A stretch of DNA of 64,000 nt from Escherichia phage T5_ev219, in sequence record NC_134263.1. One strand, 5' to 3'. Of the stretch, positions 239-9,385 are shown in pieces. Positions within the stretch are counted from its first letter, which is position 1. The number at the start of each line of letters is the position of its first letter. The translations under genes were made by a program, and so were the position numbers. The notes below the pieces were generated by a model that worked only from the letters and a program-made list of their open reading frames with translations, was not told the origin of the DNA and did not search any database.

Positions 239-317
239 TGGTAGATCGCCTGGGACTCGAACCCAGAACCTTCCGATTAAAAGTCGGATGCTACTAAACC
301 TATTGAGCTAGCGACCT
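239..317 (-). tRNA. tRNA-Lys (anticodon TTT)
   Basis: Reverse complement folds as cloverleaf: acceptor AGGTCGC/GCGATCT, anticodon stem TCCGA/TCGGA with loop CTTTTAA, T-arm CTGGG-TTCGAGT-CCCAG, encoded CCA. Confidence 0.75.
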
Positions 318-506
318 ATTAGTAACCATTATATACTTCTTTAATAGAGTGGACTTTTAAATAGGGATGATTAGTATTAAACTCTACCATTACTTCATCC
401 CAATTTTTACCATAATGGGCAAGTAAGGATTTTGATGTATTCTTACCTAAACGTTTGTCACTTACTACTAATCGAAATACTTTCATTTCGAAATCCTCTA
501 TTAAAA

Positions 507-584
507 TGGAAGCGGGTGCAGGAATCGAACCTACCTCTTTCTAGCTTATGAGACTAGTGATCTCTACCAGAGATCTAACCCGCA
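507..584 (-). tRNA. tRNA-Met or Ile2 (anticodon CAT)
   Basis: U8, D-arm GATC-TCTGGTAGA-GATC, anticodon stem CTAGT/GCTAG with loop CTCATAA, T-loop TTCGATT, encoded CCA; position 1-72 appears unpaired (T-T). Confidence 0.65.
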
Positions 585-590
585 ATTGTT

Positions 591-668
591 TGGTCTCCGT
601 GGGAGGATTTGAACCCCCGACCCTATCGCCCCAAACGAAACGCTCTGACCAAACTGAGCTACACGGAG
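591..668 (-). tRNA. tRNA-Pro (anticodon TGG)
   Basis: Perfect 7-bp acceptor CTCCGTG/CACGGAG, D-arm GCTC-AGTTTGGTCA-GAGC, anticodon loop TTTGGGG, T-arm GGGGG-TTCAAAT-CCTCC, encoded CCA; one mismatch in anticodon stem. Confidence 0.65.
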
Positions 669-863
669 AATATTATTTCTTCAACCACAACAAAGATAAG
701 CCCAGCATACTAAAGCCGCTAACTAATCCGATACCTTTTTCTTCTATAGTAAAAGTATCTAGATTAAATGCTGTTATAGCTATTGGCATACACCATAATG
801 CCATAAAAACTTGAGCTATCTTGTGTTTCATTTTGCTTTCCTTCCCTTCACTTTATAAGATAT

Positions 864-892
864 ATTATACAGAGAATTAAGCAGAATAGCAA
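864..892 (-). promoter_or_regulatory. sigma70-type early promoter driving the tRNA cluster at 239-668
   Basis: ATTATA 864-869 and TAGCAA 887-892 on plus strand (rc TTGCTA-17 bp-TATAAT); AT-rich UP-like tract at 893-905. Confidence 0.6.
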
Positions 893-918
893 ATGAATTT
901 TTAATAAATTTACTTATT

Positions 919-1019
919 GTGTAGGCCACCTGGAGGCTATGAACCCCACGGCTGACAAAGAAGTTTGCGAGACCTCTCTTAAATGCCAGAATAGACCCGC
1001 CGATCTATCGGAACCTACA
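919..1019 (-). ncRNA. structured RNA candidate (tRNA-like, non-canonical)
   Basis: Ends pair as a 7-bp stem (TGTAGGT / GCCTACA), internal hairpin GATAGA-cccgccga-TCTATC and a T-loop-like GGGGTTCATAGCC; no ORF; lies in a transcribed tRNA island, but a canonical cloverleaf could not be built. Confidence 0.25.
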
Positions 1020-1039
1020 TAATAAGTAAACTTTATAGT

Positions 1040-1170
1040 GTCATTCTAGACAGGATTCGAACCTGTTATCACTTGTGCGGACTTACGAGAACCATTCTTT
1101 CACTCGAATCGAACGAGCTTCTGCCCTCGCCAAGTTGGTTTCCCCATCAACCACGCTAGAATGTTTGATT
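1040..1170 (-). ncRNA. tRNA-like element(s), unresolved
   Basis: Canonical T-arm ACAGG-TTCGAAT-CCTGT (rc of 1050-1066) and a second T-arm-like CTCG-AATCGAA-CGAG, but acceptor pairing implies either a 67-nt or a 120-nt molecule; possible Ser-type anticodon loop TTCGATT; not resolved by eye. Confidence 0.25.
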
Positions 1171-1284
1171 GTTTTCAGTGCAAGAGTCCGAGTCTTGGAC
1201 ACGACCGCTTCGCAAGTACATAGGCAGCTTATCATGAGTCAGCACTTCCGAATTGCTAGCTCCGTGTTCTGCACTGAAATTTTA

Positions 1285-1641
1285 TTAGTTTAACCGTAAA
1301 GTATTATCTACTTCACCATTAATTGTTCGGCATTCCTCTGGGATTGCCGGGGTGGCCTTGTATTCCCACCACTCAGCACCATCATATTCCCCACGTTCTA
1401 GCCAAGTTCCATCGGCAAACCATACATTACCATAAAGTAATTGTCCACCGTATCCAGAATCATATTCAAAGTCTAGGTTATTAAGAAAATCCTCAATATC
1501 TTCTTCTGCATAACCTAAAGGTAATACCCAAACTTTTTTATCCCCATAATACCCGAATTCTATTTTAATACACTTAACTTCAGAATTAGTATTTTTTAAG
1601 GCAAGTAACAGCTCTTCTTTAGCATTACGCATATTACGCAT
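1285..1641 (-). CDS. hypothetical protein (start trimmed to MRNMRN... to clear tRNA-Asp)
   Basis: ORF track 1285..1728; the N-terminal 29 codons overlap tRNA-Asp, so internal ATG at 1639-1641 is preferred. Confidence 0.5.
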   Translation of the reverse strand: MRNMRNAKEELLLALKNTNSEVKCIKIEFGYYGDKKVWVLPLGYAEEDIEDFLNNLDFEYDSGYGGQLLYGNVWFADGTWLERGEYDGAEWWEYKATPAIPEECRTINGEVDNTLRLN

Positions 1642-7430: not shown

Positions 7431-7439
7431 GGAGGAATT

Positions 7440-7634
7440 ATGTGTTGCAGAAAATCTGTTTCGTGCTGCCCAATGCCTGTAGCACGTTGTTGCTCTCCAG
7501 CAATGTTTACGCAAATACCGGCGTTCAATCCGTTTGCCTTTAAGCCTACTCTTATCCTGCCCCCTAGAGTAGATTTTCAGTCAAGATTGGCCTCCCGTAT
7601 GGGTGGTTGCTGTAACAAGAGTATATGGTTCTAA
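7440..7634 (+). CDS. hypothetical Cys-doublet peptide (64 aa, four CC pairs)
   Basis: RBS AAGGAGGA; MCCRKSVSCC...RCC...GGCC pattern. Confidence 0.5.
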   Translation: MCCRKSVSCCPMPVARCCSPAMFTQIPAFNPFAFKPTLILPPRVDFQSRLASRMGGCCNKSIWF

Positions 7635-7649
7635 GGAACCAAACAATAA

Positions 7650-7686
7650 AGCCCCTAGTCGAAAGACTTAGGGGCTTTTCTTTTAT
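7650..7686 (+). terminator. rho-independent terminator ending the plus-strand module
   Basis: Hairpin AGCCCCTA-gtcgaaagac-TTAGGGGCT followed by TTTTCTTTT. Confidence 0.7.
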
Positions 7687-7690
7687 CTTA

Positions 7691-7731
7691 AATACAGAAA
7701 AGCCCTGCGCTCTCCAGGGAACGCAGGGCTT
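7691..7731 (-). terminator. rho-independent terminator for minus-strand SPFH gene
   Basis: Hairpin AAGCCCTGCG...CGCAGGGCTT followed on minus strand by TTTTCTGTATTT. Confidence 0.65.
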
Positions 7732-7754
7732 ACTTCGAATATTACGTGTGGGTA

Positions 7755-8702
7755 TTACTTGTTACGCATATCCATAATCATCTGGCCATCGTAACCAGTG
7801 CCAACCACAGTCTGCGGTACGCCACCTTGATATTTCTGAGCACGAATCATCTCAACTTCCAGTTGTTTCCAACGAATCATCTCAGGAGTAATGGTACGTT
7901 GCAGTGCGGCGTTAGCTTCAGCTTCTTTCTTAGCTGCGTACAGTTTAGCATCTGCGTCACGTTCATTAGCGATAGCTTGGTTGTTGCGAGCTTCACGATC
8001 TGCTTCTGCTTGTTTAACTTTTTGCTGTGCTTCCTGTTCAACACGAGCTAATTCAGCTTTAGCAGCATTAACCTGTTCTTCACGAACTTTGGTATTCTGT
8101 ACCTGTTCCATGATTACCGGTGGCAAAGTAATATCCTGAAGGAATACCTGCTTAACTGTGTAACCATATGGGCGTGCATACTCTTCAACTTCCTGTTGAA
8201 TTGCAGTTTGCAATTGAGCCTGAATTTTAGCATCAAACAAATCTTGTGCTTTAGGTACAGACTTACCAAACTCACGAATAGTAGACAGTAATTTTTCAGT
8301 TACATACTTGTCTAGTGCCTGATCCTGAGTACCTGCATTAATACGGTTAATCGGTGCCTTAGAACCATCAAACTGCAACATAACAGTCAGGTCAACAGTG
8401 GATTTAAACTTATCCTGACTAGGAACCTGAAGTTTATCTAATTTTACAGCAATATCTTTTGTACTGAAAGTATCGAAAGATGCAAACGGGTTTACAATAT
8501 GGAAACCAGGTAATACTGGATTAGGGTCTACTTTACCCAGGAATGTTTGAGTTTTAACCGTACCATCAGAAACAATAGTATATGAATTAAAAGCTAGGAT
8601 TAAACCTGCTAAACCAACTACAGCACCAATCCCCCAACGTTTAATAGTACGAATTACTTTCTGCTCAGAAGTTAGTTCTTTCATATTTTTAGTATTAAAC
8701 AT
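7755..8702 (-). CDS. SPFH/band-7 (HflK/HflC, stomatin-like) domain membrane protein
   Basis: N-terminal TM segment, SPFH-like core followed by long A/E/Q-rich coiled coil typical of HflK/C family; RBS AAAGGAAA. Confidence 0.6.
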   Translation of the reverse strand: MFNTKNMKELTSEQKVIRTIKRWGIGAVVGLAGLILAFNSYTIVSDGTVKTQTFLGKVDPNPVLPGFHIVNPFASFDTFSTKDIAVKLDKLQVPSQDKFKSTVDLTVMLQFDGSKAPINRINAGTQDQALDKYVTEKLLSTIREFGKSVPKAQDLFDAKIQAQLQTAIQQEVEEYARPYGYTVKQVFLQDITLPPVIMEQVQNTKVREEQVNAAKAELARVEQEAQQKVKQAEADREARNNQAIANERDADAKLYAAKKEAEANAALQRTITPEMIRWKQLEVEMIRAQKYQGGVPQTVVGTGYDGQMIMDMRNK

Positions 8703-8736
8703 ATATTTCCTTTGTTTTAGTTACAGTTAATAAAAT

Positions 8737-8811
8737 TGGCCGAGGTGACAGGATTCGAACCTGCATAAAGGAATTTAGAAGACTCCTGCCTCTCCCTTAG
8801 ACTACACCCCG
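8737..8811 (-). tRNA. tRNA-Arg (anticodon TCT)
   Basis: Acceptor CGGGGTG/CACCTCG, anticodon stem GGAGT/ATTCC with loop CTTCTAA, T-arm GCAGG-TTCGAAT-CCTGT, encoded CCA. Confidence 0.65.
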
Positions 8812-9313
8812 TTTAAGTATTTTTAAGAACTCTCGTAAAAACTCTTAAAAATACAGACGATACCGGGAGAGTCATAAGTCTCACTCATTAAGTATTTCAA
8901 GACAAAATACAGTAACGTCTATTATTTTCCAGTTTAAGTCAGGGTGACTTAGTGGTTATGTCCTGCGGTATATTGAGGACTCGGTTAGGCTTGGGGTCAT
9001 GACTTCCCGCCTTTTGCTGCTACTCAACAGGAGTTATCGCGAATTACCTGTGCTATTGTGCACCATTAGTGACATCTCTCATGTCAGCATTTCCCACTTT
9101 GTGGATAGCTTGAAAAACTACTCCGATATGGAGAAAGAACTTCACTATCCTAGAATACCTTCTAAAGTTCTTCTTTAGCCTGGACATAGTTAAATCGTAA
9201 TAAAACTATTCAGCAGACTGGTTGGTTAGTCTGGAACCAACTACCGCGTGGTTTAGGCAGTGCGCAACTAACCTCGGAAGCTTTTACGTTAAAAGCATCA
9301 GTTATCCAGTTCT

Positions 9314-9385
9314 TACCGACCGTAGGATTCGAACCTACATCTTCCACCAGTTACGGCTTGGTAATACCAATTATACTAGGACGGC
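9314..9385 (-). tRNA. tRNA, anticodon undetermined (possible CGT or 9-nt anticodon loop)
   Basis: Acceptor GCCGTCC/GGTCGGT (one mismatch), T-arm GTAGG-TTCGAAT-CCTAC, no encoded CCA; anticodon arm ambiguous. Confidence 0.45.

Follow-up and report, generated by a model that had tools for sequence, protein, structure and literature searches.

What purpose is served by the dense array of tRNA genes carried by Escherichia phage T5_ev219, and why do several of its members depart from the canonical tRNA form? The array lies at one end of a 64,000-nt stretch of sequence record NC_134263.1 (the whole of which is referred to here as the window), where a preliminary description had reported a large tRNA island with odd members and had proposed roles in codon-usage compensation and in countering host defences directed at tRNAs. 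We consider it very probable that the region is a T5-like tRNA island which provides largely host-independent decoding, serving both codon supply and the replacement of tRNAs destroyed by nucleases. The island itself is a known system and belongs to textbook T5 biology; its anti-defence role in T5 has been shown experimentally since 2024, and a confirmed island opens no new question.

Automated prediction bore out the island. In the window, the Rfam tRNA model RF00005 gave 15 matches (32.6–61.1 bits, E values from 9e-11 to 6e-3), all of them above the gathering score of 29 bits and confined to positions 242–9385 of the minus strand, with none in the remainder of the 64 kb, and ARAGORN called 14 tRNA genes, again on the minus strand only, at 239–9386. 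Every tRNA in the preliminary description was accepted by RF00005, and ARAGORN rejected only the second of two tRNAs with anticodon CAU (5034–5111), which it overlooked because the T stem has two mismatches at its base. The earlier list was correct overall and left out one gene, tRNA-Trp(CCA) at 3315–3391; its "Met/Ile" (507–584) is the gene named initiator-like tRNA-fMet in the T5 record, and its "Met" (5037–5111) is the tRNA-Ile2(CAU) of that record. In the order of transcription, from right to left, the elements are a tRNA-like element here called X, followed by Arg, Ser, the second CAU tRNA, a tRNA with anticodon UAA, Tyr, Glu, Trp, Phe, Cys, Asn, Asp, Pro, the first CAU tRNA, and Lys. In 14 genes a discriminator base is followed by an encoded CCA and then by an A/U-rich trailer, and a 7-nt anticodon loop with U33 stands on a 5-bp stem (with one or two stem mismatches in 5/14). 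The sole exception to the encoded CCA is X (9314–9385), whose 3′ tail reads AAGAA, so that the single CCA-less element reported earlier was correctly recognized.

The first 10 kb of the window matches 566 phage records, the best match being Escherichia phage chee24 (Tequintavirus; 96.5% identity over 97% of the query). Transfer of the T5 annotation by blastn indicated that the region is collinear with the annotated T5 tRNA region, including its promoters, stable RNAs, and flanking Toprim, SPFH, and YqeY genes. Judged by this collinearity, the region is the right-hand two thirds of the Tequintavirus (T5-like) tRNA gene region. The apparent start of the island is an artefact, because the window edge cuts it on the left; in relatives it extends leftwards through about ten further tRNA genes. 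The T5 region itself (NC_005859, about 28.0–41.6 kb) contains 25 tRNA genes along with the stable RNAs RNAI, III, IV, 1, 2, 2H, 3, and X, and it shares with the window its gene order, promoters, terminator, stable RNAs, and flanking genes. At the level of individual genes, Asp, Asn, Cys, Ser(GCU), and Arg are 100% identical between the two phages and the fMet-like, Phe, Glu, and Ile2-like genes are 97–99% identical, whereas Lys, Pro, Trp, and Tyr are deeply diverged replacement alleles (56–72% identity). The window lacks the tRNA-Val that adjoins Lys in T5, and the slot occupied in T5 by the HNH homing endonuclease gene hegA holds instead the tRNA with anticodon UAA and two small open reading frames (ORFs).

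Codon supply and replacement of host tRNAs

Codon compensation and defence evasion are compatible rather than mutually exclusive roles. With respect to the former, E. coli uses the codons AGA, AUA, CUA, and UUA rarely or infrequently. The 47 non-overlapping ORFs taken from the window are enriched in them, with 9.7, 12.8, 19.3, and 21.4 occurrences per 1000 codons, respectively, and the island contains tRNA-Arg(UCU), an Ile2-type CAU tRNA, and a leucine-type tRNA with anticodon UAA, in support of the codon-usage compensation originally proposed.

With respect to the latter, the evidence comes from T5. AriB, the nuclease of the PARIS system, cuts the E. coli tRNAs for Lys(UUU) and Thr(UGU) as well as that for Asn(GUU) between positions 40 and 41, its target motif being U36-A-A-U39-C40|N41; T5 tRNA-Lys, which carries A39 and C41, is not cut, the change U39A alone abolishing cleavage and A41C lowering it, and T5 tRNA-Lys, tRNA-Thr, and tRNA-Asn together restore infection of PARIS hosts (PMC11464382, PMC12409363), with tRNA-Asn contributing to the rescue (PMC12409363). 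Similarly, PtuAB of retron-Eco7 depletes tRNA-Tyr, infection is restored by the tRNA-Tyr of T5 or SP15, and the tRNA-Tyr promoter of T5-like phages is very strong (PMC11555353). T5 mutants without 11–17 tRNA genes are viable and PARIS-sensitive (PMC11464382, PMC12409363), and because they are viable, the island is accessory. The principle common to these T5 systems is substitution at or around positions 39–41, or overexpression.

The T5 tRNAs that counter PARIS or retron-Eco7 belong to the same island and are encoded by the same genes as those considered here. In particular, tRNA-Asn(GUU) of the window (2041–2118; found by ARAGORN and Rfam) is 100% identical to the tested T5 gene; its anticodon stem contains G27xA43 and U30xU40, and it reads UAAGUU in place of the host UAAUCC at the AriB cut site, which is the kind of substitution at 39/41 that characterizes AriB-resistant variants. 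Together with the T5 experiments, this identity upholds the defence role put forward in the preliminary description. The window tRNA-Lys and tRNA-Tyr, in contrast, are unlike the characterized T5 alleles. tRNA-Lys(UUU) (239–317; 79 nt; ARAGORN; Rfam, 59 bits) is 72% identical to its T5 counterpart and 68% identical to E. coli lysT, and its anticodon stem-loop reads UAAUC|G41 (U39-C40-G41, against A39-C40-C41 in T5), with position 41 alone altered relative to the host motif (A to G). tRNA-Tyr(GUA) (3484–3574; 91 nt; type II with a weak D stem; Rfam, 32.6 bits; ARAGORN) is 71% identical to the T5 allele, and its anticodon stem-loop is exactly that of E. coli tyrT/V, whereas that of T5 differs.

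Mismatched anticodon stems, defined here as stems with pairs that are neither Watson-Crick nor GU, were noted in the preliminary description and are indeed present in five tRNAs, with one mismatch each in Pro, Trp, and the second CAU tRNA and two each in Asn and Phe. Each tRNA was compared with its T5 and E. coli K-12 counterparts. Mismatches affect 7/70 pairs of the phage anticodon stems, whereas the 13 matching E. coli tRNAs have none in 65 pairs (Fisher p = 0.014), and every relative with the same allele shows them unchanged. This invariance, together with the excess over the host, leads us to read the non-canonical stems as selected escape variants rather than products of decay. The mismatched-stem tRNAs are not obviously decoys, as their anticodon loops, discriminator bases, and CCA are intact and the Asn gene acts as a replacement; the non-translational roles once suggested for the odd members are not supported for this group.

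Several observations weigh against the evasion reading for this phage. PARIS resistance of its tRNA-Lys is uncertain, because U39 and C40 are kept and only position 41 differs. Since the stem-loop of its tRNA-Tyr is that of the host, an advantage, if there is one, would have to arise from dosage or from elsewhere in the molecule. Furthermore, the phage's own T stems are mismatched at 2/70 pairs, and measured against them the excess in the anticodon stems is not significant (p = 0.17). Nuclease resistance of Lys and Tyr, whether to PARIS or to retron-Eco7, should not be extrapolated from T5, because the window alleles differ from those assayed. By analogy with T5, the defence-evasion mechanism is supported for the island as a kind, while for the Lys and Tyr of this phage it would be an inference.

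The turnover of alleles has a pattern of its own. A survey of 29 T5-like loci, in which alleles at the same position with <85% identity were counted as separate lineages, gave 6 lineages for Leu(UAG), 5 each for Ala and Tyr, 4 each for Pro and Glu, and 3 for Lys; most anticodons are represented by 2–6 deeply diverged alleles at one slot, between neighbouring ORFs that are 90–99% identical. To judge from these comparisons, allele diversity at fixed slots is the pattern that an arms race with cassette exchange would give, and homing endonucleases, which are interspersed in the T5 region, could drive such exchange. Some relatives (loci L004, L006–L013, and others) carry a class-II-like tRNA-Asn of 83 nt with the variable arm GUCGAAAGACAAC and a tRNA-Thr of 87 nt, both of which keep in their anticodon stem-loops the host UAAUC motif that is cut by AriB of PARIS; these alleles may represent a different route of nuclease evasion.

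A general scheme for the island can be proposed. Seven short early units, each with a T5-type sigma-70 promoter, would mix small ORFs, the 14 decoding tRNAs, and tRNA-like RNAs. Host RNase P would cut the 5′ ends of the transcribed tRNAs, and RNase E together with exonucleases would trim the A/U-rich trailers after CCA. The resulting set would read codons that the AT-rich phage favours but E. coli serves poorly (AGA, AUA, and UUA) and would replace host tRNAs that defence nucleases destroy, either through an altered nuclease recognition or cut site (anticodon-stem changes, as in Asn and in the Lys of T5) or through excess production from strong promoters (Tyr).

A short-armed leucine-type tRNA and the CCA-less element X

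The tRNA with anticodon UAA (4451–4527; 77 nt; Rfam, 57.4 bits) has a variable loop of 5 nt, GUUUU, and thus matches the short-armed TAA tRNA of the preliminary description. It falls short of the arm of >10 nt that defines a type-II tRNA-Leu (14 nt in E. coli leuZ) and at the same time carries the full E. coli leucine identity set, comprising A73, A14, A15-U48, the G18G19 placement, A20a, and a Leu-type D arm with a 3-bp stem and an 11-nt loop (GAAUUGGCAUA). According to work on the identity elements of E. coli LeuRS, the long arm is dispensable and arm-less tRNA-Leu variants are charged (PMC9976931). The combination of a leucine anticodon and a short variable loop is also known from tRNA-Leu(CAA) of S. 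coelicolor and from animal mitochondrial type-I tRNA-Leu (PMC6614811, PMC9976931). The S. coelicolor tRNA makes no use of A73 and needs a specialized LeuRS (PMC6614811), whereas the phage tRNA keeps the E. coli-type leucine D loop, A15-U48, and A73. From these sequence features we assign 4451–4527, with moderate confidence, to a type-I tRNA-Leu that has lost its long variable arm. A point against this assignment is that charging of the S. coelicolor type-I tRNA-Leu(CAA) by E. coli LeuRS was reported to be incomplete (PMC6614811), and leucylation of the phage tRNA is therefore not guaranteed.

The sequence is identical in 19 relatives and is not found in T5; among relatives it is accompanied by a 77-nt paralogue with the anticodon UAG. 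A fixed-spacing pattern, consisting of a Leu-type D loop, the anticodon loop CUUARAA, and a T loop 15 nt later, was used to scan for the class more widely. In IMG/VR (loci L078–L197) it recovered at least 120 loci with at least 126 tRNAs and at least 88 distinct sequences; among the matches listed, all loci are tRNA-rich, and U48 is found in 88/88 and A73 in 87/88 of the viral sequences. At least 120 further loci were recovered in bacterial genomes and metagenome-assembled genomes (L198–L317), many of them in dense tRNA arrays, and one conserved Acidobacteriota lineage carries the pattern; the possibility that the class is exclusive to phages was rejected on these grounds. The type-I Leu-like tRNAs listed are 74–78 nt long, with the anticodon UAG or UAA and a Leu-type D loop. 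A literature search for type-I tRNA-Leu in phages found no description of the class. Arm-less leucine tRNAs are thus common in viral arrays, which is at odds with the common assertion that tRNA-Leu of the bacterial type is type II without exception. By analogy with eukaryotic Schlafens, which recognize type-II tRNAs, loss of the variable arm may be an escape from nucleases of this kind.

Element X (9306–9390, body 9314–9385; Rfam, 37.9 bits) lies within the homologue of T5 "RNAX". ARAGORN calls it Ser(ACU), with A33 instead of U33 and a 3-bp anticodon stem, and GenBank records label it variously as "RNAX", tRNA-OTHER, tRNA-Sec(UCA), and tRNA-Pro. Its homologues follow a YqeY-like gene in the Salmonella, Escherichia, Pantoea, and Erwinia phages examined, Epseptimavirus included, and also occur in two Klebsiella phages with no YqeY gene annotated at that place; where flanks are held among relatives, X precedes tRNA-Arg. 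In the Markadamsvirinae relatives examined, the gene immediately upstream of X encodes a YqeY/GatB-tail-like protein with a tRNA-binding fold.

An alignment of 17 distinct versions of X is invariant at U8, A14, G18G19, the T loop, the leader ACACU, and the trailer AAGA. In the three helices (acceptor, D, and T), pairing holds in 93.7% of cells, and both sides change in 8/16 pairs; none of 500 shuffles reached the covariation score, and slid controls were paired at no more than 50%. The anticodon arm, in contrast, is unalignable, ranging from 17 to 31 nt, with "anticodons" that change by lineage (ACU, UCA, AGA, and UGG), and in the Klebsiella phages it forms an extended 31-nt hairpin without a 7-nt loop. 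Because the three helices covary while the anticodon arm varies freely, we interpret X as a selected, L-shaped, and non-decoding tRNA mimic; on the strength of this alignment, it is constrained across Demerecviridae. One widely mis-annotated "tRNA" would thus be a conserved non-decoding mimic, and the non-translational role that had been suggested for odd members is well supported in its case. A scan of IMG/VR with the X pattern returned only T5-like genomes and two large contigs; the latter matches are ordinary tRNA-Thr(CGU) genes with CCA and were dismissed as chance.

The surrounding RNAX-homologous leader (8812 to about 9600, minus strand) is non-coding and runs from promoter P16-17 to tRNA-Arg, with a T5 blastn match to about 9560. 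A distance of 215 nt separates X from the promoter, and about 500 nt lie between it and tRNA-Arg downstream. Other non-coding blocks of RNAX, at about 9391–9443, 9104–9176, 8994–9058, and 8816–8854, are kept as far as Klebsiella, Pantoea, and Erwinia phages, and the conserved blocks include a hairpin just upstream of tRNA-Arg. Small ORFs in RNAX (e.g. 9053–9187) were judged spurious, with no protein-level conservation in relatives. The spacer was also considered as a decayed version of the gene found between X and Arg in Epseptimavirus and Pantoea phages, and this was set aside as tblastn detected no remnant.

The likeliest function of X would be that of an RNase P-type processing or stability module in the RNAX leader of the tRNA-Arg/SPFH transcript. 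X may also serve as a bait, or as a shield, in encounters with immune effectors or host factors that recognize the top half of tRNA. In the tRNA cluster of phage T4, small stable RNAs (species 1 and 2) are co-transcribed with the tRNAs, and some cluster members have no encoded CCA. The T4 cluster and mascRNA-type modules resemble X, as proposed here, in that tRNAs or tRNA-like RNAs are cut out by host tRNA-processing enzymes; X differs from them in its position in a long leader and its freely varying anticodon arm. That X, as a Demerecviridae-wide mimic possibly active beyond processing, and the type-I Leu class, as possibly nuclease-evading, are jointly newly described entities is a proposition that we put forward with considerable doubt.

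Competing explanations for the array

Could the array be maintained solely for codon-usage compensation, with its unusual stems reflecting neutral drift? AGA, AUA, CUA, and UUA reach 2–5 times their E. coli frequency in the window ORFs, and the fitting tRNAs (Arg UCU, CAU/Ile2, and Leu UAA) are present. However, the set also includes decoders of single-box or non-rare codons (Trp, Cys, Asp, Asn, Phe, Tyr, and Glu), for which no shortage is expected, and the stem mismatches do not vary among relatives. Moreover, hosts free of defences support growth of T5 mutants without 11–17 tRNA genes and PARIS hosts do not, single phage tRNAs rescue, and deletion of T5 Lys or Tyr alone is reported to lose evasion while leaving burst size on defence-free hosts unchanged. 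We consider codon supply as the only function improbable. Even less probability attaches to the proposal that the mismatched-stem tRNAs are decoys, absorbing host anticodon nucleases or tRNA-modifying toxins without serving translation. Expression from strong early promoters would suit such decoys, as would the finding that, in the course of T5 infection, tRNAs of both host and phage are cut by a bacterial Schlafen (PMC13056530). Yet T5 tRNA-Lys is not cleaved by AriB at all and is therefore resistant rather than a competitive substrate, an anticodon change in SP15 tRNA-Tyr abolished rescue from retron-Eco7 (PMC11555353), and the window genes retain what charging and decoding require, namely the discriminator bases, CCA, and 7-nt loops with U33. 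Codon supply combined with the replacement of destroyed tRNAs is the explanation that we prefer to both.

Decay has also been considered, in which the mismatched stems, the short-armed UAA tRNA, and the CCA-less element would be functionless pseudogenes. Low RF00005 scores (Tyr 32.6, Trp 36.3, X 37.9, and CAU-2 40.3 bits), the one odd member missed by ARAGORN, and the resemblance of RNA2 and RNA3 to degenerate tRNAs point in this direction. Against it stand the full or almost full identity of the sequences in dozens of phages, between flanking genes that diverge by 2–10%, a compensatory change in the anticodon stem of CAU-2, the strong covariation in X, the activity of the doubly mismatched Asn gene in T5, and the presence of the type-I Leu architecture in at least 88 distinct viral sequences with fixed identity positions; such decay is highly improbable. 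Equally hard to credit is that X is a genuine decoding tRNA, as annotated (Ser-ACU, Sec-UCA, Pro, or "OTHER"). It scores above the RF00005 gathering threshold, is called by ARAGORN, and bears a tRNA label in several GenBank records, but it has A33 rather than U33, an anticodon stem of only 3 bp, and no CCA, its "anticodon" shifts from lineage to lineage, and in Klebsiella phages its arm forms a hairpin that lacks a 7-nt loop, in contrast to the covariation of the three remaining helices. The preferred reading of X thus remains that of a non-decoding mimic.

Remaining tRNA genes, stable RNAs, and reading frames

The other decoding tRNAs, all on the minus strand, include several that deviate from textbook features. 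Bacterial initiator tRNA-fMet carries three consecutive G-C pairs at 29-31:39-41 together with A73. The first, initiator-like CAU tRNA (507–584; Rfam, 43.8 bits; 98.7% identical to T5 "tRNAfM") has neither, showing A29-U41, G30-C40, U31.G39, and U73; it does show U1xU72 and A11:U24, corresponding to the unpaired 1:72 and purine11:pyrimidine24 named as bacterial initiator features in PMC9976931. The second CAU tRNA (5034–5111; Rfam, 40.3 bits), annotated as tRNA-Ile2 in the T5 record, has C27xA43 in its anticodon stem and, at 30:40, G-C where T5 has A-U, which is a compensatory change. In tRNA-Ile2 the CAU anticodon is read as lysidine, and the elements used by IleRS and TilS are A37 A38, A73, U12-A23, C29-G41, and C4-G69/C5-G68; all are present in this gene except C4-G69, which is replaced by U4-A69.

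tRNA-Pro(UGG) (591–668; 78 nt) has U28xU42 in the anticodon stem and is 72% identical to the T5 allele. tRNA-Asp(GUC) (1667–1743), in which the acceptor and the 3-bp D stem are set apart by an additional base, tRNA-Cys(GCA) (2635–2710), with the discriminator U73, and the canonical type-II tRNA-Ser(GCU) (5118–5206) are each identical to their T5 counterparts, and tRNA-Glu(UUC) (3400–3476; Rfam, 61.1 bits) is canonical. tRNA-Phe(GAA) (3234–3308) has UxU at 28:42 and 29:41 along with C32 and G37, and its anticodon stem-loop is unchanged in all 22 copies among relatives. tRNA-Trp(CCA) (3315–3391; Rfam, 36.3 bits; ARAGORN) is kept in 16 relatives; its acceptor stem is mismatched twice (U2xU71 and U3xU70) and its anticodon stem once (U27xU43). 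Compared with the 71-nt T5 tRNAW, the gene gave no blast match, the two being unrelated alleles. In Escherichia phage VEc33 (L015), a 77-nt Trp allele has the anticodon CUA instead of CCA through a single C-to-T change, which could represent either a natural amber-suppressor-like tRNA or a sequencing error.

A G3.U70 pair occurs in two of the window genes. The alanine identity set consists of G3.U70, A73, G2-C71, and G4-C69 (PMC9976931). The acceptor stem of tRNA-Lys has G3.U70, G2-C71, and A73, with U-A at 4:69 instead of the G4-C69 of the alanine set. G3 is a minority polymorphism here, found in 5/24 relatives, the others having mostly A3-U70, and the idea of a designed dual Lys/Ala identity was downgraded on account of this A-to-G polymorphism. 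A literature search for G3:U70 in phage tRNAs found no direct report. tRNA-Arg(UCU) (8737–8811), identical to that of T5, combines G3.U70 with G73; the pair is present in 26/27 Tequintavirus and Epseptimavirus copies and absent from the divergent allele of locus L009 and from the Pantoea and Erwinia genes. The tRNA-Arg(ACG) of three relatives (L005, L016, and L025) has G3.U70 together with A73.

The island also encodes further stable RNAs on the minus strand. RNA3 (1966–2038), 100% identical to T5 rna3, is a degenerate tRNA-like RNA that follows tRNA-Asn in the transcript after a gap of 2 nt and folds with a 7-bp acceptor stem containing U1xU72, A73, CCA, and an 8-nt T loop, without a D stem. 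RNA2 (1039–1163), 98.4% identical to T5 rna2, is an expanded tRNA-like RNA in which an 8-bp closing stem adjoins a canonical T arm identical to that of tRNA-Arg. For both of these RNAs, which the preliminary description did not list, a non-translational role is likely. The RNAIV homologue (918–1020) is a structured stable RNA with 96% identity to T5 rnaIV, and a homologue of RNA2H (1–143), identified by blastn to T5, is cut by the window edge. A 121-nt spacer at 1164–1284, between ORF T5.067 and RNA2, has a long closed fold (−32.6 kcal/mol) and carries no T5 annotation. A permissive Rfam scan of 1–12000 (E up to 1) returned no family besides tRNA, its matches to plastid untranslated regions having been rejected as antisense images of tRNAs.

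Homologues of the T5 promoters define the transcription units. On the minus strand these are P13b (165–229; 98.5% identical to the annotated T5 promoter), P13a (837–911; TTGCTA-17-TATAAT at 892–864), P14b (2900–2974) and P14a (3615–3684), both identified by blastn to T5, P15b (5195–5270; TTGCTA-17-TATAAT at 5250–5222), and P16-17 (9591–9648; TTGCTA-17-TATAAT at 9637–9609); blastn to T5 also located P15c (3983–4057) and P15a (5752–5824). A consensus scan independently recovered three promoters and a terminator hairpin. The P16-17 unit comprises the 215-nt leader, X, the spacer of about 500 nt, tRNA-Arg, the SPFH gene, and a terminator; the P15b unit, Ser(GCU), the second CAU tRNA, two small ORFs, the UAA tRNA, and further small ORFs; the P14a unit, Tyr-Glu-Trp-Phe and then an ORF; the P14b unit, Cys, the T5orf172 ORF, Asn, RNA3, Asp, RNA2, and RNAIV; and the P13a unit, a small ORF, tRNA-Pro, the initiator-like tRNA, a small ORF, and tRNA-Lys. 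A strong bidirectional intrinsic terminator (7700–7731; 13-bp stem and T run), matching the T5 "bidirectional terminator", closes both the Arg-SPFH unit and a plus-strand cassette.

Pfam and PHROG matches of the island ORFs comprise T5orf172/MUG113, Toprim (weak), SPFH, YqeY (weak), DUF7695 (weak), a Q-like/zinc-ribbon PHROG, and families of "unknown function", with no known anti-defence protein among them. The T5orf172/MUG113 ORF (2095–2613, minus strand; PF13455, 5.5e-16; PF10544, 2.5e-12) overlaps tRNA-Asn by its last 24 nt, so that its stop codon lies inside the tRNA (2095–2118), just as that of a 66-aa ORF (2697–2897) lies inside tRNA-Cys (2697–2710); because of these positions, RNase P cleavage would leave both mRNAs without a stop codon.

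The plus-strand cassette (5902–7731, of which 5902–7634 is matched in T5) is set inside the minus-strand island and has a GC content of 47%, against about 39% around it. It contains a P12 promoter homologue, ORFs of 326 aa, 138 aa (Q-rich), and 64 aa (with nine cysteines), and the bidirectional terminator. Its ORFs gave no Pfam match and fall in PHROG families of unknown function, and a PDB sequence search with the 326-aa ORF returned nothing meaningful; this protein is acidic at its N-terminus, has a hydrophobic segment rich in Gly, and ends in a Q/A/N-rich C-terminus that contains Cys. Finally, the Toprim-like ORF (5311–5796) stops 83 nt short of the end of its T5 homologue T5.076 (region 5228–5796), and in the blast alignment it has one base fewer than T5, pointing to a frameshift or to an error of sequencing close to the 3′ end.

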